Positions 6,560-59,600 of a stretch of DNA of 64,000 nucleotides are shown piece by piece. The stretch is from NCBI GenBank assembly GCA_008632985.1, contig QPGO01000058.1:248001-312000 (forward strand), in the 5' to 3' direction. Positions within the stretch are counted from its first letter, which is position 1. Each line of letters opens with the position of its first letter. The position numbers and the translations under genes are program-made. The notes below the pieces were generated by a model. The model was not told the origin of the DNA and searched no databases. It was given only the letters and a program-made list of their open reading frames with translations. Source of the stretch: Psammoneis japonica. Taxonomy: Eukaryota.

Positions 6560-8280
6560 GCGCGTAGCTTGCAAGTGAAGACAACGGAAACGATGGAGAA
6601 GGAGGATGAACTGTGGGCACTGTGGGCTCGATTCCTGTCAAAGTTGCAGGGACAGGCTGTTTCATTTGACAGCCTTGCGCCGGGCAGCAACTGGAAAGGA
6701 GTTCTGCTGGCTGAGCTTGAGGTTCGACAACTTGGAAGCAAGGGTGATCTTGCCTGTCGTCGAGAAGAAAAAGGGGCAGCAAGCAAAGACTTTGGAAGAT
6801 GGCATCCTTCCCTTGTTGCAAAACATCAGTTTGTTGCCCCCTTCAGTTCCAAAACCAGGGCAGGACCATGCTCCAGCAGCGACAGCAGCCAGAGATGAGA
6901 ATTTTGGGACTTCCAAAAAACTGCTCACAACCTGCCACACTGTTGGTTTGACTGCGATGATGAAACTGGTCATGTTTCTTGCACAAGTGAGAACAATGCA
7001 GTGGTGCTTGTCAGGTGCAGTGGCCTTGTGAAAGATGTCGCCAAAGCTGTGGGGCTGGACCCCGAAACTTTCACAGGGGGTTGGCGCTTTCGGGTTGCGC
7101 TGCGGGATGCATGGGTTGCAACCTTGAGTGTGACTCCTGTTGGAGTGATCAAGGTAAAACAGCTGGAAGAAGACAAAAATGGCTCTGGCAAGAATGTTTT
7201 GGATGAGTCTGCAGTCCTGGGAGACGAGCTGTGCAACTTTCAAAAAAAAGCTCCCAAACTTTCATGGCGTGAGTCCTGCCTTCGGCATGCGCCAGCCACG
7301 TTTGAGTCCTGGAGATGAGTCTGTTGGATTCCCCAGGTTGATGTGGATGTCAACAAGATTGTCAAGACTTCCAGCCCCTTCCCATTTTTGCAGCCCACTC
7401 ACTGCTCCAAAAAAGAATGCACCGGAGAAGAAAACGTTGCCCCCAGGACTCACTGCTCCCAGCAAGACCAACACCCTGTTTCGCATGACACTGCAGACGA
7501 TGATGAGATCATTGAGGATGGGGATGAGAGAGCAGCAACAACCACAGGACCCTTTGCAGGTCCAAGAATTGCAACAGAGCAGATGGCAGCCATTGCTGCA
7601 GCAGCACTTTGCAAAATGGCAACCAAGGCAAAACAGAGTCCATCATTTGGTGACCCACCATTTGACAGGCTAACAGAATGAATGCTGTTGCATTTTACAA
7701 AGGGAAATTCACAGAGCATTCACTGGCACCACATGGGGCATTTGGAAGGAGAGGGGAAGTGGAGCAAACACACAAATCCAAAGAAGTGCTTGCATGCCAT
7801 TCTTGAAGGCCTGGGGAGGGGCTCTGAGATGGACAGGTTTGGTTGATGTGTGCAAGTTCAGGGAGCCATTTGCATGTTAAAATTTCTTGTCAAGAATAAA
7901 AAAGAAGAGCTGCACAATGATGTGAAACATGAGATGGAGAAATGGAAGGCAGCACATCTGGAATTCAAGGTTTGTCGTGAAATGTGGTGTGGGTGAGACA
8001 CACTGCAGAGGCCTCACTTTGCATTGGTGGAGCCTGCCCACAGGCTAGATGTGTCAAAGCAACACTGCAGGCTAATTCTGCCTCCAAGGGTTTGGTTCAT
8101 TTGGACATGGCCTGGCGAAATATGGGATTGCATGCTGGTGGAGGGGATCATCATGCCGTTTGGTGTTTGATTTGGGTCGAGTCCGAAAGGCGACTGCCGG
8201 CGATGAGCATTGGGTGGAGCACGCAATTGCAAACTTGGAACAAGAGGCGTAGTGGCGCAGTGTCCTGGAATCATTGCTGA
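6560..8280. mobile_element. Degenerate, TpA-depleted probable transposon remnant, family not identified
   Basis: Near absence of TA, TG/CA excess, and broken ORFs with TGA stops. Same composition as the identified TE blocks. Boundaries approximate. Confidence 0.5.
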
Positions 8281-9712: not shown

Positions 9713-9933
9713 CGATTCGGCATCGCCTGTTTTTCAGCTGGGCTGGGAAGCTCTTTGCTTTTCGTTGTTGCAGTGCATAGTGTCCAGTCTCGTCAGCCGT
9801 CGGCCGTCGGCCCATTCTCACAATTTTTCAATTTTTCCCGCTCGAGCTCTTCTCTGACCACGTGTCACACGGGATTCACGGAAAATCTGACTCCCGTGGA
9901 AAAATTTTGCGCGATCCATCCGCGCCGCGCACC

Positions 9934-11391
9934 CACCCCTGTGCAAGGGAAGAGCATGGATGTGATGGCATGGTGATGTAATTTAGACGTCATCCAAAAT
10001 TTTTTGCTCGTTGGTGAGCGTGCCATCCAGGGACATGACATCAACAGTGTGGAACGCATCAGTCCGATCAAGCCAGGTGGACAGGTTTCCCTGAAATGTC
10101 TCGATTTTAGTCCTCCTGTTGGAGTGGACAATGCACTTGGAAGAAGAAACATTTGTCCCCAACAATGCCAATGGCTGGTTCGAAACCAGTGCAAAAGGAC
10201 GGTCGCTGCAGGTGACAAGGAATGACACATGCCTGTGCCTCATGTCCAATGGTGACGGCCAACAGCACAGGGGAATCTTGAGTCCAACAAATTCCTCCAT
10301 TGATGAAACAATCCGGGTGTTGCAAGTTGCGGTCATGAGTGGGAAGGGTGTCGAAGCGACCGATGGCAGGTGAGCAAAAAAGCGATTGCGTAGCTCCTGG
10401 AATTCAGAACGAAAGGATAGACCAAAACTGACGAAAAGATGGATTTCATCAAGAGCAACAAGCTGCAGCAAACCCTGGTGTGCGGTGCACAGAAGAAATT
10501 GCAACAACCGCTCATTGGAAACAATCAACTGAGGGGAAGCAAACAAAAACACTGTCCCACGAACCGGCAATGAGATGCGCCGCATTCTGTCAAAAAAATG
10601 TTCCATGCGATTGCGATGTTTTGATGTTTCATCCAAATGAAAAGAGGTGACCGGACCGTGTTCTTGTTGTTGTGTGGCTCGTGTCATAATTTTGCGGCAC
10701 TGATCGGAACCCAAGGATGAAAGAGGGATGACAGCGAGGATCATGCCATGGCGGCAGATGCCAACGACATCACGGACAAGGGATTTGCCGCCTCCTGTGG
10801 GTCGGACTGGCAACAATGGCTGGGCTTGTTGATTTTGTGTTGAAGCAAGCAGTTGGGAGCTAACCTCAACCTGCCAACTGTGAGGTTGCTTGCCGAACAC
10901 ATTGATGGAGACGTCGATGAAGGCCTGGGAGGAGGGTGCGGGTGTCGTTGTAGAGTTGGGGTTGATAGAGTCATCTGTGTCAGGCACTGCAACAGTTGAA
11001 AAAAGGTGCAAGTTGTTGCTGTGTAATGCCACCAACAACACACACTCGACAGCGGTAAAAATCACATTGCCTGATGCAGCGGAGTCATTGTGGACACCGC
11101 CAACAGGCGCCGCGTCGTGGGAAGGCGTGGACGACGCATCGCTCGACATCATCATGGTGGACTGTTGTTGACGCGTGTTTTTTGTGTGTTGCGCGAGAGG
11201 TGAAAAATGTTCGAGTGCTGCCCTCAGTGTTTGGTGGCCAGAGAATTAGTGGGGGTGCTATGGGATGGGAGTTATTACTTAACGACATATAATTATTAGT
11301 GCGTATGTGAATATATGCAACTCAACGCATGTGGTGATGTCATCACACACCACACCCACCTGCATTCCATAGCAGCCCTTGCACAGGGGTG
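9934..11391 (-). mobile_element. DNA transposon with 16-bp TIRs and 9-bp TSD carrying a RecQ-like helicase (AcademH-like, non-autonomous)
   Basis: TIRs CACCCCTGTGCAAGGG (9934-9949) and CCCTTGCACAGGGGTG (11376-11391). Identical flanks CCGCGCACC at 9925-9933 and 11392-11400. Confidence 0.85.
9983..11155 (-). pseudogene. RecQ-like SF2 helicase, C-terminally truncated
   Basis: PHSWQ (Q motif), PTGGGKS (I), IPLSSLGSDQ (Ia), DEIH (II), SFRSEF, MTAT (III), CIVHSN (IV). Motifs V-VI are absent. No Tyr in 390 aa. Confidence 0.85.
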
Positions 11392-11689
11392 CCGCGCACC
11401 GTGGTTTCGCTCGCTTGGCGTTTTCTTCTTGTTTGTACAGTGCTGTAGTCGTAAGTGACCAATCTAAAAAAACTAAAAACTACGAATGGCGATGAATGAC
11501 CGTCATAATTGGACGACAGCAGCAAGATCTTTGAAAGATATGCTCTACAAGAAAGTAAGAGAGTAAAATGGGTATTGGAACCTGCCTCTTTGGCTCAAAG
11601 CACATGATTTTGGAGGTAGTAGCATTGTATGTAGTTTGTATTAACATTACCTAGAGCTATTTCTTTATCCCAGATGTGTCGAGGCCTTT

Positions 11690-20997: not shown

Positions 20998-22666
20998 CTA
21001 GGGTTCTTCAATATCATCAGTGCCGCTTGAACCGTCAGGATTCATCAGCTTTTGTTTCTGCAGTGCCAAACCTGCTTTGCGCTCCTGAAGATCGTTCATG
21101 TGGTTATCGATCTCGCCCTCAAGTTCTTCAATTTGATCGAGAGAGAGGTCATTGTATTCTACGTCCTTTGGCAAGAGTGGAACAGCCGGGTACAAATGGC
21201 CAGCCTCGACGCTTTCTTCTTCGTCTTCTTTGCCGCCCTTGCGCGCAGCACGTTCCTCGGCAGTGCCAATGTAGACTTCGTCACGCTTAAAGCCTCGGAC
21301 CTTCTTGTCAATCTTGGCAAGGAACCATGCTCCAGAGCAAATACCGGTGGCCTCCAAAAATAGACAGATGCGGAGGAACAGGTAGGTGATGGGATTTGAC
21401 AAAAAGGCAATGGGAAAGGCAGACGCGACAAGCTGCCACGAGATGGATCCGAGAATGGTAGTAATGGTGGCACCAAGGAAACCAGTTTCAAAGAGTTCCT
21501 GGAGTCCATCGCTAACACCCCACAGGTTGCCCTTGCCCTCGTCCATCGAGACAGTGGTGACACGAGAGATAATGAAGAAGCAAGACACGACACTGAGCTG
21601 ACGGCCAATCATGAAATTGGGAAGGTTGTGTCCCCTGCCCTTGTAGAGGAGATCGCAAGTCATCTTGGCACACTTGGCTCTTCCACGCTCGTCCTTGGTA
21701 AGCTTGGCGACGGCAAAGAAGGCAATCTGCATACCTTCGAGCATACCAACGACAGACATGAGGAGGAAGAACAGAATCACGGCAACTGCCTCGGGAACAC
21801 CGTCCCACATGGTGGTTTGTCCTTGGAAAAGAGCAGATAGGGTGACTGCCAAGGCAAAGCCGAGGACGACAAACGAGACAAGGACACGGAACCAGAAGAA
21901 AAGAGATTGACCGGTGCTGCGCGGAGGCTCCTTGGATTCGATGGGCTTTCCAGCAAGGTATCCAACACAAATCTGGATGAAGTAGGAGAAGTGCATGAGA
22001 CCGGTGAATTCAATCGCCCTGGCAGTGTAGAGCGTAAAGAGGTTTGCATAATCGTTGAAGTAGTCGAGCATACAGAGCGATGCGTTGACCTGCGACTGCA
22101 ACTGTCCGACCTGTGCCGTAAAGAGGATCATGGCGAATCCGGTGACAAGGAAGATGTCGACAATCCACTTAGGCAATCCCCAGAGTTCAGCACCTTCGAT
22201 AGGGGCTCCACACTTGTTGATGAGGAAAACGATAAAGATGACCATGAACTGACGGCCCATAAGGTAGCGATCGAGGTTATCTCCCTCTTGGGTCATAGCG
22301 TTGCCCTTGTAAGCGATCGGGTGGGTGTCCTTGTAGAGCTCACGGTCAATCGGGTGAAGACCAACCAACGAAGCCTGTCCGCCCTCGACGAACGAGAGCC
22401 AAATCAACATCACCCAAAGGATAATAAAGGCAAGAGCAGGATGGTATTGCTCGGACCACGCCGTCTGCCTTGTGAAGATCAAGCCCATAACGATCACCAG
22501 CGAGAACACAAGGAGAATGGTGGAGTAGAACATCTTGAAGATGCTGAGAGCTTTGTGCAAGTCCGATTTCTCTGTAAGGAGGAACGAGCGAAAGAGCGAC
22601 CGAATGAGCAAACAACGCAGAGGAAAACAACAAGCTACGTACGAGAGAGACAGGCTTACCACTCAT
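20998..22666 (-). CDS. SIT: Silicon transporter
   Basis: About 10 TM segments, EGGQ, GRQ, EGMQ and GRQ motifs, CMLD motif and C-terminal coiled coil. Exon 1 ATGAGTG (22666-22660), intron 22572-22659, giving MSEKSDL. Confidence 0.97.
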
Positions 22667-23299: not shown

Positions 23300-25800
23300 G
23301 CAGACAAGCACAAGATGTTGGTCCAAGCGACTGAACCACTGCTTGAGAGCAATCTAAAAACCACCCAGAAGGAGGAGATCATGCCAGAGCAGCACGCCAA
23401 GACATCAAACAAAATGGCACTGCGAGGAAACCCCCAAGAGGAGCAGTCAGGTGCATTTCAGAATGTGAAAAAGGTGGAGTGCTTGCACCCAGTGCACCAT
23501 GTTTGAGGTTCTGCAGACCCGAGGATTCCGGAGGAAGACCAGGGTGTCATGATCACTGACAGCGCCATTGAGACCATCACACGATGACTGTCCAGGAGTG
23601 CAGGCCTTGGCAAAGCTGATGCCAATGCAGTGTTGCAGTGGCTGCTCCGCTGCAGAGAAGCCACTAGATTGCTTCGAGAAAAGCGCTGTGCATCATGTTC
23701 GCAAACTGGCTGGCCAACGAATTGCCCCCATGGGCTGCCTGTCGCGCAACCATGGCAAAGCAACTCATCACGCCAGACAAAAATCTGGGCATCCATCCGG
23801 TCAGCATGGGGGGGGGGCATGGCAGAGAGCCACAGCCAAAGCTGTTCTCCCAGTTGCTGGAGCAGAGGCCAAAGAGGCCTGTGGGATGGATCAGCTGTGT
23901 GCAGGTCTTGAAGCAAGCATCGAGGGCACGCTTCACACACTGGGAACAGCACAAGTTCCAGGATGACTGCATCTTTCTCTTTGTTGGTGCCTCCTCTGAT
24001 GGATTCAATGAAGAGAACTGGGTTCCAATGTTGCACAACGTTGGACACTTCTGGCCATCTGGCACAAGGTTTGCCTTCAACTGCTGCAAGCACTGCTAGA
24101 GCATCCACATCATCTGCAAACACTTCGGTGTGGCAGCCTGTGGATTGAGTCTTCTCCCACCAGTCCACAAGCTCAATGAAACCTTCATGGTGTGATGACT
24201 CTCCACCGCAGCCAGGAAATTCAATGTCATCTGGGAATTTTTCTTGACTCTTTGAGCCGAAGGCCCCAAACATGGATGCTGCCCTGCTGACAACAAAAAG
24301 AACAGCATCCCAGCAGTCTCCCAGAATGCAACCCAGAACATGCCAGGGTGCACTTTGGAAACCTCGGCTTTGCCATCTGCTCAGGCAGCTGCTGCCATGG
24401 AGGCTTCATTGGAGAGATGGACGCATGCAACCAATGGCCAGTGGAGAAAGCCAAGTCATGCACCTTGGTCATCCAAGGACTTGCAAGTGTTGCATTCACC
24501 ACCCACAGACTGCCGTGCCGGTCTTCAAAAGTCCCTGCAGCACCAGTGGCAGTGTGTCCAATGCATGGCAAAGGACTGTGGAGAATCCTTCACAGAAGTG
24601 GAATGCATGATCCAGCACCAATTTCTTCCAGCATCAATTGGCAAGACCTTGGCTGACAATGATCCAAGATCAGCCCTGTCTGCCCTCCCAATCAAATTTG
24701 CAAAGCTGTCCATCCCTTGTCCAATGGAGTCTGCACCCAAAAACCATGAAGCAAGTGCTCTTGCATGCTCTCATGTGATGGACTCACTTTGTGGCTGCTC
24801 AGATTTTGCTTCAGCAGTCCACAAGGGCACCATGTGCAAAGTGAAACAAGAAGCAGCCATTGGGAAAGCCAAGATGCACAAGGAGAAACTCAAGACAACC
24901 CTCCAGGCTCTGTCTGACCTCAAAGCCAGAGCTGTCAAGCACAGCACCAGCACTGGAGCATGCCCATCAGTGTGCTCATTGATGCTAAATGGCACAGAAC
25001 TTTCTTGTCTAGAATTCCACCATGCACTTCACCTGTGATGCAGCAGCACTCCCCCCAACCTCCCTGAGCACTGCAATGGATGCTGATGCAAATTCTCTGT
25101 CAACCATGCCCTGCAGTGCAAGAAGGGCAGCACAGTCACATCATGACATGACGACATGATGTGTGATGACCTTTGTGACCTAATTGGAAAGGCCTTCAAG
25201 CCTTCCTGTGCATGCAATGAACCCCTCATCAACCCTGTTGGTTGCACCTCAGGAAGCCCAGGTGCCTCCAACAACTCACAAGGCACTGCAAACTCCAACA
25301 TGTCCAAGGATGGCAACTGCACAGATCTTCTGTCTCACCAAGGATGGCAACCGCACAGATCTTCTGTCCAAAGGATTTTGGGATTGGAGGACAGACACCA
25401 TCATGGATGATGTTTGTGTTCCAGACACGGATGCAGAATCACACCTGTCCAAGACACCAGAACAAGTTCTGGAACAACACAGATGAGAGAAAAAGTGCAA
25501 GCACCTCAAGTCCAGCCTTGAGCAATGTCGCCACTTTGCTCCCTTTGTTGCATCATGCAATGGGCTGTTTGGCAAAGAAGCCAAGGCATCACTGAGCAAA
25601 ATCTCTTCCAAACCAGCTGACAAATGGCAAAAGCCTTGTTCAGAGGCATTTGGCTGTGTCAATGCAAGAAAGAGCATCGCTGTGGTGCGGGCGACTCACC
25701 ATTGCCTCAGGGGATCATGCATCCCTTTGTCCCAGATCAGTTCCAGATGTCCCCAGCCAGTGGGAAGATGGCACTGGTCTGTCCCTGTGCTGGCACCAAA
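23300..25800 (+). mobile_element. Degenerate non-LTR retrotransposon, CRE-clade-like (RT + restriction-like endonuclease)
   Basis: DKNLGIHPVSMG, EACGMDQLCAGLEASIEG, ASSDGFNE, WCDD (YxDD-like), EGPKHG, GGFIG, LPIKF, zinc knuckle CNGC..FSVNHALQCKKG..HDD, RLE-like DLLSKGFW...DTDAES...EKK and RATHHCLRGS. Many TGA stops and frameshifts. Confidence 0.85.
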
Positions 25801-28800
25801 TGACACCCTGCTTGGGCCAGACCACCACTGCCAAGAACAATTGCCAAATGCCAACTCATGGACAACCTCTGCTCATGGCCCAATGCAGCCAAAACACCAT
25901 CACAAATGCAACAAACAGTGCCAGATCTCATTTGAACATCGCGCACTCAGATGACAGAAACCACACGCAAAATCCACCCCTCATTTGCATGACCACATCA
26001 ACCACATGATGCCCATGTTTTCCCATTTTTTCCCAAATCAAAGGCTGAGCACACACAAAACATTTATTTTTGTGTGTGCACTTGCCTCTTTTGATTTTCA
26101 AAACAATCAAATTTGAAGGAGGTCAAATTTGAAGGAGTCTAATGTGCCAAACTGTGCAGACAATTGATCTCTCTTGCATGATGGATTGCAGATCACCTGG
26201 GGCTGGAACAGGCTGCCATCATTTTGCCAGCCCAAGCGCTCTGCTGGGGACTCCCTTAACAACACTTTGTGAGATTCCATCAGAAGTTCCAGCAAAAAAC
26301 ATGCTGACAAAACAGCACAGAGAAACAAGCACCCCAACATGCCCACACCCCCACCCATCAAGTTTCTTGCTTGCACCAGCAAAAAGAATGCAGTCAGAGC
26401 TTCAGCATTTTTCAGTCTGCAGGCTCTGTTTGTCTTTTTGTTCATTGCAAATGGACAGGTTGATGATTTCAGTGGCTTTCAAGTGCAAAGTTCTTGCAAC
26501 CTTGTCTTGCGCCACTTCCCCCCCCCCCCCCCCAAAGAGAAGTCAACACATGAGTGGCACCATTGTCCCCTTGCATCTGAGTTGGTCTTTGTGGCCATCA
26601 TCATTGATGTGTCTCAAAGATCAAGTTTGGCCACCTTGTGCACTGACTCTGTGTGATGCAAGACTGAAAAAATCCTTTGAATGCAACAGCTCCATTTTGG
26701 CAAGAACAAGTGTGCATTGTTTCTCCATTTCCTTCATGGCGCATGTCATGCCCTCTTTGTGTTGTTGCTTGGCACCACTTCTGCAATCACAAAGTTGAAA
26801 GAAGTTGTCAAAAGCAACCACACAACCACCGCGGTGATTTGTGCAAAAAACACATCATGCCACTCCATGTGAAACATGTCCACAAAAAAAAGATTTCAAT
26901 GGGTGCTTTGACATGCAATGTGGATTTGAAGAACACCAACTGGAGCCAGAAAAAATGGCTGCCAGCAAGGTGATGGGTTGGTTTCAATTGGAACATTTGG
27001 CAGTGAAGCCAGTTTCCAAAGTTGATCCTTTTGACACACATGGTCAACCCACTGTGAGCCTGAGCTTGCTGCTGCATGCTGCTTCTTGGCTGCACCACCA
27101 CCAACTGCTTTGCAGCCTAGAGAGCTGCCCTTGTCATTTCTGGCTTTTGGGACCTGCACTCTTCCTGCCTTGTGCAGATGATGCTTGTTGCAGCTGTTGC
27201 TGGCAAGAAGGCCAAATCATCTTTTGAAGAGTTCACACGCAGCGGCATGCAGAGCACAGTGCTCTTTTGTGCAACTTTTGTGCCTGGTGTGTCTCTTGCC
27301 ACTGTCACTTTTCCCTTTGCTGCAACCTTTGCAACTCTCCTCAATGACAAGAGGACCACAATTTGGGGAAGGCACCAGTGCCGGTGCTTTGATTGTTGTC
27401 TTTTTGATCATTTTGTGCATTGTCAGTGCATGCTTGAGGGTGTGCAAGTTGCCTTTCATGCCACTGCCAAGATCCAAAAGTCTGAGTGTGGGGAGAAAGA
27501 AGGGTGCTTTGTTCCCACAATGACCTGTGGCCTCCTTTGCTGTGCAAGGGCAAGGCAAGCACCCTTTCTGAGCTCATCATTGGATGTCACCTCCTGGTTT
27601 TGCTGTTTGTGGTGATGTGTGTGTTTTTCATTGCCTTCATCACTTCTGTTAAGATCAAGGAAGGAGAAGAGAGCATCTCAAGTGTTCTGATTCTCTCCAA
27701 GAGAGCTCTTCTTCAGAGTGCTGATTTGCTTGGAGCGCTCATCATCCTTGTCACCACAATCATTGCCTCTGTGTCATGGCAGCTTGTGGCCTCCACCTGT
27801 CATCAGAGCAGCAATGGCAAGTCTCCAAATGATGTGGAGCTCTCTGCAAACCACCAGCGACAGTGACAACACCACATGATGTGCTGGCATGAAAGAGCAG
27901 AGGAGTGGATGCATTCTTGGTGAAAGAGGATGACCCACCCAGTCACTGCTGTCATTGTGCAGAACAATGTGGAGCAGCCAGCAGAGACAAAGAAACTTCA
28001 GGGTCTGGAGCACCAATCTTGCCTTGACATTGGCAGGAAGGGCCATCAATCCTGCAGACAACAGTGGCAACCAGCCTGAATCATTGCAGACAACTTGCTT
28101 GCAGGCACCACAAAGACACAGCAGACTTGATGTTCTGTGGACAAGGAGGTGGTTGCAAGATCCATCTGGGAATCCACAGCTGGTGCATGTCTTTCACTTG
28201 AGGTGCATCAGCAGCAGCATGGTTTGGAATCTGCAAATGCCACCACACATTGGAGCTCAATCAAGAGGTCACAGCATCAAGACAAAGCAGCTGTTGCCAA
28301 GAGCACATGATGCATGGGTGTCACAAGCAGCAGTCATCATTGGCAACAATTCTTCAGGCATGGGGCACCCCCCAGTCACAGGAGGCATGTTCACAGGCAG
28401 GTGCAGGTGCTTGCATCACTGGGTTGTGAAAAACAAATCCTTTGGAAGCAACCAACATGCAGTGGGTGAGCAGCATCCAATGAGCAGCTGCACAAAAAAT
28501 GCTGTGGCTGCAAAAGTGCCACAACTGCAACCAAGCTCTGTGCAATTGTGTTGCAGCTGCATTTTTCACAGACACCACAAGGTGAAGCAGCCAGATGGCA
28601 TGGGGACTTGAGGGTCAGTGCACACTGGCAGCAGCCACAATGGGTGATGCAATGTGATTGACATGGTGCACTCACACAAAGCTGCAACAAGAGATTGTCT
28701 GTGCCAGCTGACAATGGATTTGTGCAATTGAAGTGCACACCAGGATTGGAGCAGCTGCGTGCGCGCCATGCACCAATTGCAATGATTGCTTTTGTGTGAT

Positions 28801-30170
28801 CTGGCAAATCTTGAGAATTGAGAGCAAATTGGATGTTGGCTGCAGTCAAGCACCCACCTTGAGAGGCAAGATGCAGAGTCATTGCCCACAGGAGTTTTCA
28901 CCATGAGAGAAGATTGCTTGAAAATCAACCACACAACAATGGGGGCAGCCAGTCCTTCTTGGGGATCTCTTGTTGAGAGTGGAACAAGGTTGTTGAGGAT
29001 GCAATCATGAAACAGCTCAGTGACACAATTCTCAGTTTGAACACACTTGAAATCATCAAACAAACAAACAAAGCTGACAATTGAGCCACCAGAAATGCTG
29101 CTCAGATGTTTTTCACAGCTTCAGGGGTGCACAAGAGTGCACGCCAGAAATGCTGCCTGAGTTCTGGTGAGAGCACCAGCAATGACATGACCTTTCCAGA
29201 ATTGCAAGCTGCCATGTGGTGCAAGTGCACAAAAATGTTGTTCCAGTGACTTGGAGAAGGCCAGCATTGTTTGGCAGCCCAGAAAAGATGCAGAGATTCA
29301 ATGACACACAGGAAAATCCAAAACTCACTTGTGATCAAAATGAGAGCGCAAGCTTGTTTGGCTTGCAATGTGACAAACAAAATGCAGCAGCCAACTCAAA
29401 GATGCAAGAGGACAATTGCAGGGCCACAACCTGTCAGAGCAGTGATGGCCAAGTTGAAAAATGATGTGGAACTTCCTGCAAACTGGCAGCATCAGAGTGA
29501 TGGCGACACACGTGTTGTGCCAGCAAGAAAGAGTGAGAGAGGCAGATCTGCTTGGAAAACAACATCTGCTCAGCTGTCTGGGTCTGACCATCATCTGTGG
29601 AGTTGGCATGCTGACACTGCCTTTCCACCACTGCCTTCCTTTCCAACCCCTTCAGATGCACTTTTCTCTGTGTCTGTCTCTGTGCTGTTGAAGAGGCCAC
29701 TGGCAGCAGCACCGCCTCTGTTCTGGAGCCTGGGTTTTTGTTGTGTTGCTCCTTTTCTGTCCACAAGAAGATTGCTGGTTTCAAGCATGATGGGTTCACA
29801 TTGATGCTGCCAGGGAATGTGCGGCAAAGCACATGGCTGACAATGACTCCGCCCACGTTGGAGCCAGCCCCACACTGCGCAAAAGCAAGCCGCCGCCTTT
29901 CAGCAGGATGACACAAAGGACTTTGTGTGAGAGACTGCATTCTTGAAAAAGATGAGGAGCTCAAAAGAGAGATCACCAAATGCATGGATGAGATTGAGCA
30001 GCACCAAACAGATTTGGAAACTCAATGCCAGAAGCTGTTGGCTGCTGCCGGGCTCAGTGGTGGGCTTCTTTGGCAGCACTGGGGATGTGCGACCCCCGCC
30101 CCCAAGAGAGAGAGTGCTGGGGCAAATTTGCACAGCATTTGCCTTGTCTTCATCACAGTGGCACTGAATT
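25800..30170. mobile_element. Further TpA/CpG-depleted degenerate repeat DNA, families not identified
   Basis: Continuous with the CRE-like copy. Almost no TA or CG, and only spurious Cys/His/Gln-rich ORFs. Confidence 0.55.
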
Positions 30171-46499: not shown

Positions 46500-48830
46500 G
46501 TCTTGTACATTGTTCAATGCAAATTGAGGTCCACTCCAACCACAACTCAAAGGAAGCTGCATTTGAGAGAGCCACATGCCTTGTTCATCATCAACAACAT
46601 TGAAAGTCAGGGCGGCCACAACCTCCCCTCCTGTGTGCTCCTCAAGTCAAAAAGACAAGAGAACAAGAGTGCCGGCCGGTTTTGTGGCTCAAGTCAAACC
46701 AAAGAATCAGCTGCCATTTTTTATTCAACCACCATGACAATTTGTCAAACACTGTGAATTCTGGGTGACTCGTGCTGTCTCTTGCTTTTTTTGCGCGATT
46801 GCTCCGACCTGTGTGCCCCGCTCTTTCTTGTGTGTTTGTTGCTTCTGGCAGGGGCATGCAGCACAAGCAAAAACAAAGCAAAAAGTGCAGTGCTCTTCCC
46901 ATTGGCTCAACCAGAAAATGCAGCAGTGTTGAAGCATTCCCCACAAGCAAGCTCTCAGCTGGGTGGCTGCTGGAAATGCCCCGCCCCCCTTTGCTGGCTG
47001 TGCCAACAGCAAAGCGATGTCCCACTTGAGATTTGATTTGGGCCTTTGATGATCACACAATGGCCTGCCTCCAGCAACAATGGGAGTGCTTGATGTGGAA
47101 GGAAGATTGGAAAAACAGTGAGTGCATGGACAAATCCAGGAAAGCAGTCGTTGTCATGCCGTGGTTGGGTGCATCATGTCAAAGGGCCCGACTTCAACCT
47201 TTGAAAAGCAGCACAGCACAAGTTCAGCAAGTTGTGCGTGGGTTGGCATTTGGTGGCCAATCTCATCTGCTCTGCAAGAATGCAACAGACATCAAGGACA
47301 AATTGCAGCATCCTTCTCAGGAGCACATGGAGGAGCCCAAGTGTGACACTCTGATTTCTTGCACCACATTTTGCGCCATTTGCAAGATGATGGGTGCTGA
47401 CGTTGCAAGTGCATGTGGACAGTTGATTGCTGCCAGAACAAGGAGGGTGCAATGACTGTCCCTGACATTGAGGACAGTGCTGCTCCTCCTTGTCCCACCA
47501 CTGCCAGCCAGATTCGAAGAAGCAATCCACAGCCAGAGAGTCAATGTCCAAAGAAGAAGGCAAAGATGTGGCATGAGCAAGGAACTTGGAACATCTTGGT
47601 GGCCTTGTTTGCCCCCCAACAGTGGCAACAGTGTTGCCTGCACTTAGTCTGTTGTTTGTTCTGTTCCTTCACCTTCTTTGAGACACAAAAAAGAGATCCT
47701 GTGCATTGACAAAGAATCTCATTGCATTGCTTGGTTGCTTTGGACCGATGACCTTTCTGTGTCACCAAACCATCTCTGATCCTCACTGGCTCCAAGACTT
47801 CACTGACAGCAACTGCGAATCTTGGCATGGACGTGCTCAATCGTTGCACCCTGTTTCCTTGGAGAGCGGTGCCTCCGCCCAGCAGCATGGCAATTCGAGA
47901 GTGATCTCAAAATGTTTGCTCAACTTGCTGTTCATCGTGTGGGTTTCTTTGCCCTGTGCGTGATTTGCGTGCACTCTGCTGAAGTTGTCATCCTCAAGAT
48001 CTGCATCATGATTTTGACTGCCTGGACCTTGGAACTTGGAATGCCCCCGGTTCGCGTCATTTTTGGCCGTCCGATGTTTCGATGCCTGCATTGCGACTCT
48101 GGCAAATGACAAGGACAAAAGGGTGAAGTGCTGCTCGTGCCGACTGCTTGTCAACGCCGCACTGCCCGCGTGCATCGTGCTCCACAGCGTTTTGTTTCGC
48201 GAATTTGGGAGGCCTGCGTCTCACTGGTGCTTGTTGTGTGTGGCGTTCAGAGAGGAGCCGCCAGTGGGGCACATGCCGCCGCTTTCACAACGACCGAAAT
48301 TTTGGTTGCCTTTCTAGCGACCCTTCAATTTCATGCTGGGAGGACACTGGTTGGTCTTTGTCACCGGAGACATGTCCAAATGTGCAGCAATGGATGACCC
48401 TGATCTTCAAGCCGGGGCGCGAACAGCGCATCAGGCGACATGGCTGGCTTTCTAGCCTCTTCAAGAGTGTTTTGATTCGGAACACACACAGCTCTCTCTT
48501 CGGCCGCGTGGCAACTGCCACAGAGGTGCGTTTGTGCAAAGAAATCACAAGGAGTCCAAAGGCATCACGTCATGTACAAGTCAATCAGCCCTCGTAAGAA
48601 TTTGGCTGCTCGGAGGTGAGCGGACGCAAACGAATTAGCCCAAAAGCATCACATGTCAAAACCAATCAGCCGCTTGGAACTCGCATGCTTCCATGCCCAA
48701 ATTGTCACAATTTTTGATTCTCTCCAAATTGCAAGCCTTGTGTTTGGTCATCACTGCTTCCACTGCTGCTGGTTCGGACGCCAAGAAGAAAGAGGATGCG
48801 CCTTTCCTGTGAGCGAGCCCAAGAAGGACG
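46500..48830. mobile_element. Degenerate TpA-depleted probable transposon remnant(s), family not identified
   Basis: Almost no TA over ~2.3 kb. CpG is partly retained in 47800-48550. No recognisable protein. Confidence 0.5.
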
Positions 48831-49291
48831 ACAAGGCACAGGTGGTTCCAAGAAGGACGACACGGTGCAGGCATTAAGACGGTTTCGAAAGATGCGGAGA
48901 CGAGCCGAAAGCTCCCGAGGAAAACGACAAGGAAGAAACCGACGAGGAAATCGTGACGAGCCATACAAAACGAGAAACCCATGAAAACTTGTAACTTCTC
49001 TCCCTAAACAAGTCGAGAGGAGTGTAATTAAGTGGTCAAAGCACTTTGTTATGTGAAATGTCCAAGTTTCCATCGTCCGGGAGAGGGTTCAAGTTGGCGA
49101 ACCGACTTTGGCGATTTGTGTAGAAAACATGCTAAGCTCTACGTACATAGAATCTGGCCCACTTTTGTACCCGTACCACCTTAAAAAAAACTTTTCTCGC
49201 TGATGGCTCCCGCTGTCCATGACGATGCACGATGCCACGGACAGCGGTAGTTATGTGAGCTGCAATTACAGCTAAGCCTGTGTTGCGTAGC

Positions 49292-51350: not shown

Positions 51351-51929
51351 AGTTGAATGGAACTACTGGATACAATCATGATGAAGAGAACACTGTCAAT
51401 CTCGATACCGTATTGTTTTTGTGTTATTGTCAAGAGAGGTTGAAGAATGAAGAAGTGAGCGGGCGGGGTGTTTGGCTTCGCATTCGGTGGGGCTAATACA
51501 TTCGCGACATCATGTCCAAGTCATTGTTAACGATGGTTCTACACAATTCTTCGGCATAAAAGACAAAGCTGTGAGCAGCACGATTACAATCGCTTTTAAA
51601 GGAGACATTGTGGAGACATTGAATTTGTCCCAATCGTAAATTGTGTACATACGTACTACCAAAGCATTCTCTATTATGTCCCATTTTCGTCGTAAGCGAA
51701 ACGAGGTGTCAACCTTTTTGTCCTTCTTACACATATCCGGTCTTTTTGTCCCGTACGGGGGAAAGAAGATGTTCAAGAAATGACTGGTTGATCGTGACAT
51801 CCCAATCACTGTTGCAGAAGTACAACTCGTGACACATCATCGCGGTTGTTCTTCGCCCCCCGAAACTCCCTCATTCTGTGATGTGATGATGTCAGTGTGT
51901 TCTTTTTGAAAGATCGACATCTGTCTTAG

Positions 51930-52086: not shown

Positions 52087-52140
<54 letters not shown>
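52087..52140. repeat. (AC)n microsatellite
   Basis: About 27 AC units directly after the gap. Confidence 0.98.
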
Positions 52141-52142
<2 letters not shown>

Positions 52143-55100
52143 AGCCAGCTGACAAAGCCAAACCCTTTCTCCACCCACTCTCCATTGTGAGTCCATGCGT
52201 CGACCAACACGTGTGCACTTCACACTCCCGGGGTCACCTCATAGACTCTCGGAGATGCCTGACGGACGGTGCGCCAGGGTCGCATGCAGGTGGTTTGTCG
52301 CTGTGCCCTTCCGGATTTGGCTGAATGCACTGCAGAGCTTTCTGCACAAAACATGCGAGAAAATGTGCCGATTGGATGATGATCAATTTTGCCATCCCAT
52401 TGATGCCACAGCTTTGTGACGTCCAACTGATGTTGTCAAACCAAACACAGAAGCGTGTCATGCCATTGGAGTGGAAAGAATCGGCGGCTGTTTTGTTCAA
52501 TTTTGTCCAAGACTGCACAACTGCAAAATCTTTACTTTTTCGGTCACCGCCGACACACGTTGGTGCATGTCATCACATGTTCCACTTCGTTTCACCTTGT
52601 GAGTCATGACATGGAAACGGATGTCTCTCTTTGTCATTGCCCTGCAATGGCGTTGCCTTTCTTGCAACTCAAGAGTCGTTTTTTGGTGTTCGTTACAAAA
52701 ACGAGTTTTTGTTTTTTTGCAAGAAATGCACTCACTCACAGACTGCGCTTTTTCTCATCATGAAGCAGGCACCCAGTCTTCGCAACACCATGGTGTTGTT
52801 TTTTCATGTCTGTGTGAGACGTTGTTGGACTGAAGCTCGGAGATTCAAAACCAACGTAGTCTGGGGACTCATTTTCGGTCGGGCATGACATTTTTCCTGT
52901 TTTTTGAGATTTCGAGACAGTTGTGCCAATTTCTTGCTGCTTGGGGAACATCAAATGCAGCGGTGATGCTCCAGCAGTGCCAGCCAGTTGATGAGGTGGG
53001 ATTTCACATCACAATGTTGTTGATTGTGAGTTTGTAAACTCACTCAATGGAGTTTGCACATTGGTCTGGTTCAGCACGGTGAATCAGAGTTGGGCGACCA
53101 TGCAATGCTTCTGAAGCCAATCAGAGCAGACACAGAGGGGCATTGGCAGCTTTCTTTGGTGCACTTGTTGTCAAGGCAACAGCGACTTCATTTGGAGGTT
53201 GATGCTTGCAATTCTTTGTCGCTTTGAGTGTGCTGGGTGTGGTGCAGTGGTGCACACAGCAAATGGTTTCTTTAAAATGAATTGCAGATCTCAGCTGGAC
53301 AGGCAACCAGATGCAATTGGCATCTCCAGTCTTGCACAGTCTCGCCTTCAATGATGAGCAACGTAAAAACACAGAGCATTTAGAGTCGTGTTTTCCCTGC
53401 AAAATCACAAGAAATCAAGGTGACCGTGGTGAAATCATGCAAAGGAGGGGATTTGTGCATGTCACTGCGAGTGCAGCAGCCAAGTCAGCAATGCACCGTG
53501 TCTGTCAAAGCTGCAGTTCAACCATGTCTTCTTCACACATTGATGTGCAACATCCCGGCTTTTAAAGCCACAAAACATTCACCACAAAGAGAAAGAGTGC
53601 GATTGGCAAGCCATCACATTGTGAAGAGAAAACAAGACACGACAAATCCCAGTTTGAGCATGATGACACTCAAGCATTGATGTGAAAACTGACACTGGAC
53701 TCAACGCCCTTGTAAAAGCACAACTTTCAATGCACAACCAAATTGAAGCGAGTGGAAGAAGATGATGAAATGAGACGCCATGTCAGCGTGACAAGCGACA
53801 AACATGCGACATTGCACACAGCCAGCATTGGGCATGTTGCAACAACAAAAAAACCAGTTTTCTCCATTCCAACACCATGGCGCACTTCAACAGCAAGCAT
53901 CTGAATGGACACTGAACGGTGCAAAGCACAGCTGTCGATGTGCCGATGAAATTGATCATCGTCAGAACGGCACATTTTCTGGTGTGTTTTGTGCAGAAAG
54001 CTCTGCAGAGCATTTGGCGAATCACGGAATTGCTCGGTGACACATTTTTTGCCACCGTCTGTCAGAGGCATCTCCGAGACACCCCTTTGCAAGTGGTCCC
54101 ATGGGATGTGGGTGTGGGTGATGTGTGATGACATCATTGCATGCGTTGAGTTGGACATGTTCACATTCTTGCGAACATGTGCATGTCATCAAGTAAAAAC
54201 TCCCATCCCCTGGTTCAGGATTTTCCTGTTGCCATTGGAGTTTGTGTGCAGATGCAAAATTTGGCGACATTGCAACATGTAAAAAATTCATGACATGAAC
54301 AACACATCACCATGACATCAAAACCACATTCTCCACTTGCGAAGGGGTGTCTCCGAGAGTCCATGAGGTGACCCGGGTGTGCGAAGTGCGCGCGTGTCGG
54401 TCAACGCACAGACTCACGATGGAGAGTGTTCTCCACCAGAGGTGGGCCTGTCTGGTGCAGTGACTGGGCAAGCTCTCCCTTTGTGCCTTCTCTTCTGCAT
54501 TTCTTGGCCAAATGACCCAAAAGGATGTTTTCATCCCCAAACAGTTTTTGAGGCAACGTGCTGGGGAGCTTGCCAAAGGAGGCCCGGGCGCAATGACAAA
54601 CTGATGTGGAAAAAGAAAAGTCGGGTTGTGTGGCTCTCTCTCCTTGTTGTCTCATCTCTGCCATGTTGCAAAAACATGGCAAAACAATGTTTCACTTTCT
54701 TGTGCTGCTGTGCAAAACAATCTCAAAGTGCTGGTGCCAAACATTTGTGCGCAATTTTTGGCGGGCCGCAGACTTCAGTGCGAACTCTACAAGGACTCAG
54801 CTTGGCTGAACCACATTTTCAATCATCTTTGTTTTCATCAAAAAGCTGAGTGTCACAATGAAATGAGAGTCAAAGTGTCACAAGCACCTGTGGGAGAATG
54901 TGGTTTGGTGGGTCAAAGTGCAGCTTTGAACATGTTGTAAGACAAACACATTTTTGCACTGAATCAAAAATTGCAAGGCATCAGTTTTTGAATGCTGACT
55001 TCTTCTGACATGAGGGTCAAAATTGCACTTTGACTGTGTCAATCCATGTCCACTCTTGATGATCTTTTGATGCACATGTGGTTTCCTGGTCTTGCGAAGG

Positions 55101-55449
55101 GGCATCGTCGTCATCCATTGCCCCCAAGTCATGCTCAGTTTCAAGTCCCGGGGGAATCTGGTCAAAATTTCTGCGGGATTCACCACACCATGAATGGAAC
55201 CTTCATGGTCAGTCACGTTTTCCAAAAAAAAATCCATGGTGAGAAAAACTCAAAGCAAGCCAATGCCAATGAAGTGCGAGGCACTCGATCCCTGCAGCGC
55301 GCAGCACATCTTGCTGCACCTTCATCAGCATTGCTGTTGGAATCGGAATCTTCATTGTCTGGTGGGTGAAGTGTTTCATGATCATCGTTGTTGACTTTCT
55401 TTGTGCCGGTGGGAGGCTTGCTCTCATTGTTCTCACTTTTTTCAAGGTT

Positions 55450-56620
55450 CTCGGGGTTTTGAGGGCACAGATGTGATGTGATTTGTTGGTGATCAATGCC
55501 ACCACATCACTTGCACCTTTTCTCAAAGTCATTGTTTCTTTTTCTTTTTCCTGCAGATTTGACGGCAATGCCAGTCATGCAAATTTCTCCGCACTTCTTG
55601 GATGCTGCTGCCTCCTCCAACAGAAGCCGCTTGATCTTTTTGCACTTGGACAATGCACGGCGATGCTTGACTTCCACCCCATTTGCACTCTTCCAAGCGC
55701 TTTCAATTTTTCTCGTGGGTTTTCAGTGACTTGAGGGTGTGACCATTGATTTCTATCCCAAGCTTGTCAAACACACTTGTGGTGCAATCCACCTTGCCCA
55801 GGATGCTTGTGCCAACACTCATGTGCACTCTTGAGGCAAGTGCCATTGTTTGTGAGTGTGTTTTGGTCTTTGGCGCATGCTTTGCCACTGACTGATTTCT
55901 TGCCTCATTGATTTGCGAATCACAAGAGTGGCGGATCTCTTGCAAGTGCTCAGTGGCTGTGGACTTGTTGCAGATGGGCTTGAGTTGGGAACGCAAAATG
56001 GCATCCTCAGCATTGCATTGATGCTGACCCATTTTTTTGCCTTGTGACACAGAACACCAGGCTTTGTTGAAATGCACATGGTCATCAAAGTGGTGCTCCA
56101 GCACTGCCTTCATTTGTTTTTTGAATGCATCAAAATCACTTTCCTTGCATTGCTGGTTTGCATGACTCCAGTTCCACTTTAGATGCATCACATCCACCAA
56201 TGTGCAGAGAGACGTCTTCTTGGGGGCTTGTGCAAGAGCAAAGACTGGCTTGTGCACTGCTTTGGTTTGGGTGGTTCGGATCTTGCAACCAAGCTGGTGG
56301 GTTGATGTTGAGTGGAAGATTTCACAGATCCAGCAACCACCTGTTGTTGGGCTCTCTTGGTGTCTCAGCAATGACTCCCTTTTCCAGTTCTTCCTTGAAT
56401 GAATGTTGGCATTTGGTTTGGGTCGTGGAATCACCGTTGGCAACAACACACTCAACATGAACAGCCCGCCACATGCAGAGGTCTTTATGAGCAACAACAC
56501 ACCAGCTCATGACTCCATTCCTTTCAAGCTGCCCTCGCAATCAGTGGGACAGTCATGTTCTGGTTCGGGTGCATTTGGACTCTTTTTCTTCCAAGATTCA
56601 TGGAAGGAACATCTCTTGGC
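55450..56620 (-). mobile_element. Mutator-like (MULE) transposase pseudogene
   Basis: HDCPTDCEGSLKGMES, VECVVANGDST, AVLEHHFDDHVHFNKAWC and DSQINEARNQSVAKHAPK.KTHS resemble the N..GSS..ME / GDGDS / H.F.DH..C..WC / Q.NE..N..I...PK motifs of Mutator-like transposases. No Tyr in the 265-aa ORF. Confidence 0.7.
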
Positions 56621-59600
56621 CAACACAACCATCAAAAACAACGACACAAACAACAAACACAATGAGGAGAAACAAAATTGTCAAAAGCTTGCCATGCACT
56701 CTCAGTGTCACAGAGAGACCAAAACCCTCCTCCTCACAAAATGTCAAGCATCTGCTCCAAAAGTGCCATCATGCCCTCCGACGCATCACCCAACTCTCCT
56801 GTCTCCCGCCGTTCAAGAAGGCAAAGCACAAGCATGAAGGGGAAGATGTTCTCTTTCTTTGCATCTGCTGCAGACAAGACCCAAGCCTGTGGAAAATTTT
56901 CTGTGAAGAGTTGGATCTGTTTGATGAAACTGGGGGAAAAGGAGAAAACATGCAGCTTGCCCCAAGGGTTGTGAAGCGAAAGCGTTTCTCTGTTGCAGGG
57001 CTTCCGTTCTTGTCAATGGATGCTGTGGACATGGCTGGAACAACTGCAAACATCATCCATGGTGTGTTGAGGGTGGCATCAAGGAGACATGGCCTGCCCC
57101 AGGCCAGCACCATGGACACAATGGACCCGAAGATGAGATGTCCGACAGCAGCAATGGTGACATCAAAAGTGGTGTAAGTGGCTGTGATGAATGATCAGGA
57201 ACAATGAGAAGATCTGATGCCTTGTCCACACATTTGCCACTGCAAGATTCTCTCCTTGCACTGATCCCACGCAGATAAAATGGGCTCCAGTTTTGGTCGC
57301 AGATGAGTGTGGGGACTTTGCACTTTTTCCACACAACCTCTGGCATCTAATTTGTGCAGCTCTGCATGAATCCTCTGCAGACAGATCCAACAATTGGCTG
57401 CCACCTTAAAGAAAGGCTCCTTTGGTGCTTGTGTCAGTGGTGGGCACTGCTGTGTGTGTGCATCAAAAGGAGTCAGGAGAAGAAAAGATGTGCTTGCATG
57501 CTCCTTTGGCTTGCTGTTGACATCAACTTTGGCTGTGCTCACAAGTGCAACCTTCTTTATGAGACAAAACAATTCAAGATGATGTGACAAGAGCTCTCTT
57601 CCCCAGCAGAGAGAAAGAAGCAGCAGCAGCAGCAGTGCTGAGAAGAAGGGCGCGGCTTGGTGCCTCTGATGCTGGGAGCCTTGTTGGGAGAAAGATAAAA
57701 GCAGCAAAAGACTGCACTGCAAAGAAGTTCTGTGGAAGAGCACCAAGCACAGAGAAGCCAGGGGCACTTGCAAAGGACTCAGCAGGGTGGCCAAGGTGGC
57801 TGTGCACACCTCCTTTGTTCTGTCACTGGTGTGTTTGGTGAAAATTGGCACCAAATCAGAGCTCGCAAGCTTGTGTAGTTGGCAGAGTGTGACACAGAAG
57901 TGAGACCTTGCTTGGCTCTCAATTTGGCAGGTCAAAATGAAATGCAGAGCATTGCAAGATGAGCAAGCTGACAAGCGGCTTCTCCTCAAAGCACATTGTG
58001 AGACATGCCGCACTGACCAGATCACAAACATTTGCAAATTTTGAGTGGCTCTTTTTCTCTTTTGCAAAATCACATCACTTTTCATTCCAAACCTGTGCTG
58101 TCCTTTAAGGCAAGCTGGTGATGACAGATCTCAGCCCACCACAATCAACAACTTCCTGCCCTTTGCAACATCTCCATCAGCTCCTCTCACAGCTGATGAG
58201 AGCCATGCCACAAACCTCAATTTGCTTCAAATTGAGGCACTCTGCCACTGCAAAACAGCTGGCACTCAGGGCAACTCCACACACACAAAGCCTGTGTGCT
58301 TTTTTTGTGTGGCAAGTTGACAATGTGGCAACTTTCAGTTGTTGCAGCCAAACTTCACACAACCTGGTTGCTCTTCAAAGAAGCTGTGTGGTGGGCATGC
58401 AAGCAAGCAATGCAAAGAGCTGCAGTTGGTCTCACTTGTTGTGAGTTGACACACATGCTTGTTGCCAATGAGAATTCTTGTCACAACAGAAATCATCAAA
58501 CAGCTGCTGTCAACTGATCAATGCACAATGCTTTGTTTTTTTTTCAGCACCTTGCCCTTGAATCATCTGGCAAGTCATCTCACAAGTGGCAGCAACACAA
58601 GAGAGAGCCCTTGAGTTAAGAGCACACAGTGGCCTTGTTGGTGCTTGTGAACAAAATTGTGGGTTTGGCCTTTGTTGTGAGTCTGTTTCATTTTCAGGTT
58701 TGGTGGTGGTGTTTGCATGAATTTGTGCAGTTGCACAACACCACAAATGTGTCTGGGGCATTCCACAAAAAAACATTTGTCAGATTGATCTGAAGATCAA
58801 AGATGACTCAAGAAGTTGCTCATGCACAAAAATGTTTGAGACACGTGCTTTCAAAGCTGATGAGCAATCTGTTGTTTAGACGCAATGTGCTCACATTTGA
58901 GCTCCAGCTGGCAAATGATCACAAGCCTCTGCTCCTGCAGCTGCCATTGCAAAGAAAGACACTTTTTGGGAGGATTGCCCAATCAGACAAAATGCTGCAC
59001 ACCAGAGCTTGCATGTGCTGCTGCACTCTTGCCACCTCCAGCAAGAAGCTCACTTTGCTGTGCATGTTGGCTTCCTTGTGTGGTCCACTGGTGGCACAGC
59101 AGTCCAGCACAACAAAAAGGACAAAAAGAGCAGAGAGGAGTGGTGAGCAGTGCTTGAAGAAGGTGCGCATCAAAACAGTGGCCAATGCACACTTGCTTGC
59201 ACAGGGCTTTTGACACAGCAGTTTTCCCATGGTGTGTTTGGCAGTTTTGGGAAGATGATGTCTTCTTGCAGACTGTGAGCATGCCATCTCTTGACTGAGA
59301 AAATGATGAGAAGAAAGAGACAGCTTGAGCTCACACAACAAGATGTGAAAAAAGCCAGCTGCAGCAGCAGCGCATTTGAGGACAGCAAGAGAAGTGAGGA
59401 CAAACACTCTTCTTCTTGTGTGACCAATGTCCTGAAGATGAAGTGGTCCAAGATCAGTTTGTAGCCCCCAACACTGAGCCACAGCTAGATGAGAAGTGTG
59501 TGCTCATTTGCAGACCTCTCTCTCGTCGTGAGTTAAGAGCATGTCGCACCCAGCCTCTCCAGCACCATCGATGTGCCTTCTTTCCATTTTACTCAGTGCC

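Follow-up and report, generated by a model that had tools for sequence, protein, structure and literature searches.

How can an open reading frame (ORF) of several hundred codons contain not a single tyrosine and remain open, and which mutational process would leave such a mark? The question is raised by a RecQ-like helicase ORF found in a stretch of 64,000 nucleotides of Psammoneis japonica (contig QPGO01000058.1, positions 248,001 to 312,000 of the forward strand), hereafter called the window. The window is diatom nuclear DNA, as denoted by an intact silicon-transporter frame and by ordinary eukaryotic domains encoded in other frames. A first-pass annotation, made from the letters alone, had described the helicase ORF as open, endowed with many CG dinucleotides, and marked by few TA and no tyrosine. 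All these features were found: the ORF contains 10 TA, TAA stop included (observed-to-expected ratio, o/e, 0.13–0.14), 56–61 CG (o/e 0.76–0.77), and 0 Tyr.

A process of A:T to G:C transitions directed at TpA, chemically distinct from the decay of CpG, has probably made the helicase relic tyrosine-free, and goes further than CpG decay, apparently also faster. The domain surrounding the helicase copy would have undergone TpA-directed transitions, which convert TA to TG on one strand, and TA to CA on the other. The same process would have emptied five other blocks of the window, and decay of CpG to TpG or CpA would be a second process, lagging behind TA loss in the blocks. The relic would thereby have lost about four fifths of its expected TA, whereas its CG still falls among the values of intact relatives. 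Tyr codons would have been changed to His or Cys codons, and the TTA and CTA codons of Leu to Ser or Pro codons, while the frame stayed open.

The tyrosine-free helicase frame and its relatives

At the Tyr content of ten host ORFs of the window (2.3%), the probability of finding no Tyr in 420 aa, the stop-to-stop length of the frame, is 7e-5. The ORF is enriched in His (4.8% vs 2.0% in host frames) and Gln (6.0% vs 3.7%), and not enriched in Cys. A length of 420 codons was reached in none of 2000 first-order Markov simulations of the block in which the frame lies (simulated maximum, 408). The frame is longer than its composition predicts, and the helicase ORF is therefore a former coding frame, which has not acquired a stop yet.

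A phmmer search against 1.84e9 representative proteins returned 1601 matches at E<=1e-3, the best one at 3.4e-51 with 47% identity. Full-length relatives measure 580–690 aa, and feature both DEAD and Helicase_C domains. The closest solved structures, for the ORF as for the full-length relative P0003, are those of RecQ, BLM, RECQ1 and RECQL5, the matches to the first three having E values of 1.5e-7 to 4e-5. The match of the ORF to the Pfam DEAD domain (E 6.3e-5, 23.2 bits) is under the curated cut-off of 26. The ORF resembles the RecQ family in its best structure matches and in the presence of motifs I and II (Table 1) and of motif III (MTAT), all intact. In contrast to RecQ proteins, it has no C-terminal helicase domain, and its relatives form a separate multi-copy family.

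Neither stops nor frame shifts interrupt the frame across ~300 aligned codons. Helicase_C, or any part of the C-terminal half, is absent from the whole window according to tblastn searches with ten full-length homologues, which match by their residues 2 to ~369 only. Since only the N-terminal half is present, the ORF is a truncated relic. Many relatives are fragmentary, and a perfect 16-nt inverted repeat brackets the relic (Table 1), which suggests a mobile element; the ORF is probably a dead, 3'-truncated copy derived from a repeated, probably mobile element. In both metagenome contigs scanned, a full-length helicase relative adjoins a DUF6589 gene residing on the opposite strand (2818–4758 with 5648–6907 in contig L001; 210–2126 with 2164–4299 in contig L002). 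The two genes may form a two-gene mobile module.

The first-pass annotation had suggested comparing codons with those of intact homologues, and asking whether these also lack Tyr. They do not, as at least 4 Tyr are found in 81 of the 83 protein homologues covering the span. In the matched span of 22 relatives from metagenome contigs, TA o/e ranges from 0.35 to 0.85 (median 0.62), CG o/e from 0.53 to 1.00 (median 0.78). Over residues 85–385, the helicase ORF has a TA o/e of 0.09, below all 22 relatives, and a CG o/e of 0.69, within their range. At three Tyr-dominated alignment columns, where 25% or more of 150 homologues carry this residue, the ORF has CAC (His), TGC (Cys) and CAC (His). The motif CIVHSN had been singled out as having His in place of Tyr, and Tyr is indeed found at this position in most homologues (72/89); the ORF reads KCIVHSNRRTK, and eight homologues read K-IVYSN, ILYTN or IGYAN. 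In three columns of conserved Leu, the codons of the ORF are CCA, TCA and CCA, as expected from TTA or CTA when TA is changed to CA.

Codon outcomes were measured also by a leave-one-out comparison. Changes from Tyr to Cys or His were found in the ORF at 3/3 columns, vs a homologue mean of 0.086, and no homologue matches this rate. Changes from Leu to Ser or Pro were found at 3 of 33 conserved columns, vs 0.014 on average and 0.077 at most in homologues. In the same comparison the ORF showed no change from Ile to Met or Thr (0/9), or from Val to Ala (0/10). The early proposal of missense damage without new stops is borne out for Tyr and Leu codons, and by the fall of TAA and TAG described below; the predicted Ile replacements were not found.

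Three of 149 helicase homologues in the public representative library (P0097, P0112, P0135) are devoid of Tyr, and Cys makes up 5.8% of P0097. These three entries may represent relics, erased of their TA, which were taken for proteins when other assemblies were annotated.

TA-poor blocks and the direction of change

The helicase relic resides in one of six blocks, called B1 to B6 (Table 1), in which TA o/e is 0.03–0.14, vs 0.55 in the background of the 64-kb window. CG o/e measures 0.15–0.83 within blocks vs 0.98 in the background, TG and CA o/e 1.44–1.93 vs ~1.15, and GC content 0.47–0.51 vs 0.48. The longest TA-free stretch is 2520 bp; the median distance from one TA to the next, in the whole window, is 17 bp. 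Block borders are sharp: beyond them, TA o/e is reduced (0.41 vs 0.55) for no more than 150 bp. As a sign of leakage into the flanks, this dip is weak and non-significant (p=0.15 when context classes at <300 bp from a block are compared with those at >1 kb).

Host ORFs carrying Pfam domains are found in the background, not in blocks. Pfam searches of 121 frames of at least 90 aa in five blocks detected no transposon domain, and returned two silicon-transporter matches and four sub-threshold matches at chance level. A protein homologue search with a 156-aa frame located in the CG-keeping part of B4 found no homologous protein.

Table 1. Position of the helicase relic, TA-poor blocks, repeat copies and silicon-transporter sequences, numbered from the first letter of the window
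Feature	Position	Strand	Remarks
Helicase ORF	9983..11155	-	390 codons from first ATG (11155), plus TAA stop; 0 Tyr; N-terminal half of RecQ-like superfamily 2 (SF2) helicase
Helicase frame, stop to stop	9983..11245	-	420 codons; ORF scan
Helicase motif I, PTGGGKS	10781..10801	-	Intact; G123 and K124 invariant in alignment
Helicase motif II, DEIH	10439..10450	-	Intact; alignment
CIVHSN	10118..10135	-	His codon CAC at 10124-10126; Tyr there in 72/89 homologues
Inverted repeat bracketing relic, left arm	9934..9949		16 nt, perfect; weaker similarity reaches ~85 nt
Inverted repeat, right arm	11376..11391		16 nt, perfect; sequence comparison
Block B1	6565..7878		TA o/e 0.05, CG o/e 0.30
Block B2, domain surrounding helicase relic	9778..11247		1.47 kb; TA 12 vs 55 expected at background density; CG 78 vs 82 expected
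Block B3, most advanced	23355..30170		TA o/e 0.03, CG o/e 0.15
Block B4	46506..48875		Left part, 46506-47705, CG-depleted; right part, 47706-48875, retains 93% of CG and 11% of expected TA
Block B5	52087..59462		TA o/e 0.05; CG declines left to right, from 0.71 to 0.09 of background density
Block B6, continues past window end	61394..64000		TA o/e 0.10, CG o/e 0.34
Pair 1 repeat, TA-normal copy	51415..51929	+	Unmutated reference; copy comparison
Pair 1 repeat, TA-erased copy	62295..62751	+	Inside B6; copy comparison
Pair 2 repeat, TA-rich unmutated short copy	11248..11400		Directly abuts B2; TA-erased counterpart at 54060-54230 in B5
Silicon-transporter gene, intact host frame	20998..22662	-	554 codons stop to stop; Pfam Silic_transp E 4.7e-208; normal composition
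Silicon-transporter pseudogene, hypermutated	27064..27794	+	Inside B3; Pfam Silic_transp E 1.7e-14 and 8.3e-8; one frame shift, one in-frame stop

The direction of change was established by comparing repeats of which one copy is TA-normal and the other TA-erased. In the normal copy of pair 1 there are 20 TA, of which 7 correspond to CA, 8 to TG, and 4 to other dinucleotides in the erased copy, and 1 is kept. The same copy has 18 CG, of which 6 are kept and 8 correspond to TG or CA; all 6 CG of the mutated copy are common to both copies, and none is new. In pair 2, 8 of 13 TA are changed to CA or TG and 1 is kept, as are 2 of 7 CG. When both pairs are pooled, TA is retained at 2 of 33 sites, CG at 8 of 25 (Fisher p=0.014); 23 of the 33 TA sites, and 9 of 15 lost CG, are changed to TG or CA. 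The pair 2 repeat abutting B2 was either inserted after the mutation episode, or belongs to short or young repeats able to escape the process. Internal inverted repeats are found in it. As to duplication as a trigger, one of the two pair 1 copies is mutated and the other is not, and of the two silicon-transporter sequences the diverged copy is mutated, the intact gene unaffected.

CA and TG o/e values are alike in all six blocks, and both strands are therefore affected. Two repeat copies which are both mutated show 9 double differences, TG in one and CA in the other, in 629 columns; after their divergence, these copies were therefore hit independently, and on opposite strands. In pair 1 the TA to CA and TA to TG outcomes form 5 runs, vs 8.5 expected (P=0.051, borderline), which hints at strand-coordinated clusters. 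In the large blocks the gain of TG and CA equals approximately the loss of TA and CG (600 vs 563 in B3, 582 vs 521 in B5, 143 vs 135 in B4, 183 vs 172 in B6); the balance is looser in the small blocks (74 vs 94 in B1, 67 vs 47 in B2).

Changes of TA to TG or CA leave TGA or CAA in place of TAA, and TGG or CAG in place of TAG; they make no new stops, and the frame remains open. The density of TAA plus TAG, counted on both strands in all frames, is 3–10 per kb in the blocks vs 33.5 in the background, that of TGA 39–51 vs 38.6. A stop can be created only by CpG decay, when CGA is changed to TGA; the helicase ORF retains 2 CGA, and 18 CGN Arg codons. The silicon-transporter pseudogene of B3 (Table 1) is inverted relative to the intact gene, from which it is ~5 kb away, and is 32–38% identical to it (tblastn). 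Among the 6 aligned Tyr of the intact gene, 2 are opposite to Cys in the relic. The process strikes therefore also a copy of a host gene, not transposons alone.

The TA that survive in the blocks are biased in their flanking bases (R, purine; Y, pyrimidine). The 84 TA left include 2 RTAY, 43 mixed and 39 YTAR tetranucleotides (chi-square p=4e-12); in the background, RTAY accounts for 439 of 1560 TA (28%), YTAR for 282 (18%). In B3, 11 of 12 surviving TA are YTAR, and no RTAY is left in B2. The bias holds also vs the expectation for TA newly made from TG or CA (p=1e-6). The near-absence of RTAY among surviving TA is a new detail of this analysis, and the context effect may act at the level of the duplex tetranucleotide. 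A per-strand rule, by which A preceding a pyrimidine would be hit first, found no support, since the polarised pairs gave 5 sites as predicted and 6 opposite.

Other frames of the window deserve a short description. A 740-codon open frame (42347–44569, + strand) contains three tandem units of ~380–390 bp, 75–90% identical to each other, and has no Pfam match. A 174-bp tandem pair (39795–40142), in a frame adjacent to it, similarly lacks Pfam matches. A Hint (hedgehog/intein-type) module (E 3.8e-27) is found in the frame 14204–14944 (- strand).

Loss of TA, loss of CG, and alternative explanations

The relation between the two losses was analyzed in 212 segments of 300 bp. TA o/e and CG o/e are correlated (Spearman 0.63), since the two losses share their blocks. 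Segments low in both dinucleotides are 56, those low in TA with CG kept 13, those with TA kept and CG low 5, and 138 are normal. CG loss is thus nested within TA loss. B2 and the interval 47706–48875, together ~2.6 kb of the window, have lost TA and kept CG. Of the 5 CG-poor segments among the 143 which keep TA, 4 are intermediate in TA (o/e 0.21–0.31), three of them being located at block edges. In the 69 TA-poor segments, CG o/e spans 0–1.12 (rho 0.22 with TA o/e, p=0.07). The right part of B4 (47706–48875) has 5 TA vs ~44 expected (11%), and 61 CG vs ~66 expected (93%); in the left part (46506–47705), 17 CG are kept of ~67 expected.

What the first-pass annotation had said on this point stands in part. 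The region 24–30 kb has lost both dinucleotides (TA o/e 0.03, CG o/e 0.15), and the segment 47800–48550, described as keeping CG and lacking TA, lies in an interval (47706–48905) with 0–4 TA per 300 bp and CG o/e of 0.54–1.01. The lack of TA at 6560–7300 was recovered too (2 TA in 900 bp, 6565–7464); its supposed retention of CG is half right, since ~40% of CG are kept (o/e 0.36–0.41). That TA is removed faster, or more completely, than CG agrees with the repeat pairs (2/33 vs 8/25 kept), and with a TA o/e in the helicase ORF (0.09) below the lowest value of its relatives (0.35), CG being in range. The wording "independent" suits the ~2.6 kb in which TA was lost and CG was not, and does not suit the sharing of the same blocks by the two losses.

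Among C-containing dinucleotides, only CG is strongly depleted in the blocks. Surviving CGs are clustered (variance/mean 1.5–2.5 vs 0.99 in the background), and GCGC is enriched 2.4-fold. The tetranucleotides TCGA and ACGA are halved among surviving CGs of all six blocks. Diatom transposons are reported to be cytosine-methylated through DNMT5a (PMC9998398). CG decay in the blocks fits this report, has the hallmarks of 5-methylcytosine deamination, and probably comes from methylation.

Do the blocks differ in age, as had been proposed? Both dinucleotides are most abundant in B2, where the frame is also unbroken, and scarcest in B3, which contains the frame-shifted, stop-interrupted silicon-transporter pseudogene; this ordering fits an age difference. 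In contrast, the 11% of TA and 93% of CG at 47706–48875 are not explained by one exposure clock common to all sub-blocks; different ages are one possible reading, and patchy methylation an alternative that fits as well. According to this alternative, TA was erased by the same process, and CG retention mirrors the placement of methylation rather than exposure time, the helicase relic and 47706–48875 being simply unmethylated. At 47706–48875 TA is as depleted as in the oldest-looking blocks and CG is kept, while CG is lost in the neighbouring 46506–47705; in 14 sub-blocks the remaining TA (2–22% of background density) and CG (8–95%) are weakly related (rho 0.36, p=0.21); surviving CGs are clustered, as patchy methylation predicts. 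All this fits the alternative, which we regard as somewhat unlikely, because B2, which has most TA, has no RTAY and is richest in CG, while B3, which has least TA, has 11 YTAR among 12 survivors and is poorest in CG. The integrity of the helicase frame, as opposed to the broken relic of B3, similarly fits an order by age. The helicase relic would be at an early stage of the process, and not merely free of methylation.

Might one enzyme account for both losses? A bifunctional deaminase, faster on A in TpA than on C in CpG, would explain why both losses are limited to the same blocks. Hypermutation of A to G, or T to C, restricted to TpA has been measured in mutation-accumulation lines of the alga Bigelowiella natans (Mettrop et al., bioRxiv 10.64898/2026.01.13.699255), and the text of this preprint cites ADAT2 enzymes, those of Trypanosoma and amphioxus, for which A and C in DNA are both substrates. 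A single enzyme is nevertheless improbable here. Loss of C in the blocks is CpG-specific, and does not follow a TpC-type or other deaminase context, and the ratio of the two losses differs widely among sub-blocks. In the hypermutable regions of B. natans, according to the same text, the A to G and T to C transitions are all at TpA, and no change is reported at CpG.

Editing of A to I in the RNA of an element, followed by reverse transcription and re-insertion, is very improbable. ADAR-type enzymes prefer U before the edited A, as mentioned in the discussion of the preprint, which would agree with TpA. RNA editing does not explain that strands were hit about equally, with independent TG and CA outcomes at one and the same site, that the affected sequences include both a silicon-transporter copy and a helicase relic with inverted repeats on its two sides, and that the sharp borders do not match element ends.

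Modified bases can produce systematic errors in some long-read assemblies, and repeat DNA could have been misread in this way. Contigs from X1, one of three sequencing runs, span the blocks and differ little from the window there; a 2717-nt contig located at 57331–60045, for instance, has 3 differing letters. Of 255 difference rows 40 were examined, in which alleles and paralogues are inseparable, and 31 of these 40 lie in blocks. Among these rows, the reference has TG or CA and the contig CG in 8, the reverse is seen in 5, and TG to CA double differences in 3; the reference has TG or CA and the contig TA in 6, all at 48687–48768, and TA vs TG or CA in 0. The agreement of the contigs argues weakly against an assembly artefact, and alternative TG and CA outcomes, as coherent codon changes, are unlike a systematic miscall; we give this explanation hardly any credit. 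The six TA, found at the outer edge of B4 at positions where the reference has TG or CA, reside in one X1 contig of depth 38, which could be a paralogue, or stem from the other haplotype if the block edge has advanced less there.

A native TA poverty, due to foreign origin, codon usage or selection against UpA, would be in line with the under-representation of TA window-wide (background o/e 0.55), and is scarcely credible, because TA o/e is at least 0.35 in all 22 relatives, unmutated paralogous copies in the window have TA exactly where mutated copies have TG or CA, Tyr columns carry His or Cys codons, and TA is missing from a stretch of 2520 bp.

The TpA-directed process is thus preferred, and several points weigh against it. 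TA and CG losses of the helicase copy were judged against relatives which are only 33–47% identical at the protein level. The two repeat pairs are short and old, and only 27 of 62 substitutions in pair 1 are TA or CG transitions. Something common probably targets both losses, so that calling them independent overstates the case, and the weak correlation among sub-blocks neither confirms nor excludes a shared exposure clock. The mobility of the helicase element is deduced from the features of its relatives and flanks. The three sequencing runs come from one sample of one study, probably the sample used for the assembly, and are not independent of it.

A wider hypothesis may be put forward tentatively, as having less than an even chance. 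The mutator would be targeted separately from cytosine methylation, and usually first; it would read the duplex tetranucleotide, RTAY being hit fastest and YTAR slowest, so that the mix of surviving contexts would serve as a built-in exposure clock. Since it makes no stop codons, it would fill the genomes of diatoms, and possibly of other members of the SAR group (stramenopiles, alveolates and Rhizaria), with long, open, tyrosine-free frames, recognisable in public protein sets and usable to map the defence.

Comparison with known systems

A search of the full-text literature found no description of TpA-erasing mutation in diatoms, and for the process itself only the B. natans preprint. According to its text, 230 of 231 changes in hypermutable regions are A to G or T to C transitions, all on TpA, and deamination of DNA adenine by an ADAT2-like enzyme is proposed by the authors. 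By analogy, an enzyme deaminating adenine in DNA would be active also in P. japonica. The words CpG, diatom, context, flanking and trinucleotide do not occur in the main text of the preprint. The two systems share A to G and T to C changes at TpA, which involve both strands and concern foreign or repeat DNA, neighbouring genes being spared. They differ since B. natans, a chlorarachniophyte, was described through de novo mutations, located mainly in one giant-virus insert, with TpA depleted ~1.8-fold. The diatom window is in contrast nearly saturated (TA o/e 0.03–0.14), includes repeat relics and a copy of a host gene, and features CpG decay on top.

A DNA-level A-to-G mutator aimed at repeats has been shown so far once, in an unrelated alga, and near-saturation in a diatom suggests that this type of genome defence is more widespread among SAR protists. 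Genes are killed by missense changes, and open frames are lengthened, which misleads gene prediction and yields tyrosine-free proteins in databases. The tetranucleotide bias of surviving TA constrains the enzyme, and the order of TA loss and CpG decay bears on whether the mutator or methylation responds first to a new repeat.

In Neurospora and other ascomycetes, repeat-induced point mutation (RIP) changes C:G to T:A, mainly at CpA, creates TpA and stops, and lowers GC content. RIP and the process at work in the window both introduce dense transitions in repeated DNA, in sharp domains, and inactivate genes. In contrast to RIP, TpA and the stops TAA and TAG are removed from the window, and GC content stays near 50%. 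CpG decay of cytosine-methylated transposons resembles the CG to TG or CA changes seen here, which are limited to repeat blocks, with survivors clustered in GC-rich contexts. It differs from the TA process because it spares TpA, can create stops (CGA to TGA), and is absent from ~2.6 kb of TA-erased DNA. ADAR hyper-editing and APOBEC3 also introduce clustered, deaminase-type transitions against repeats and viruses. These enzymes act on RNA or single-stranded replication intermediates, whereas the scars of the window are strand-symmetric and reside in chromosomal DNA.

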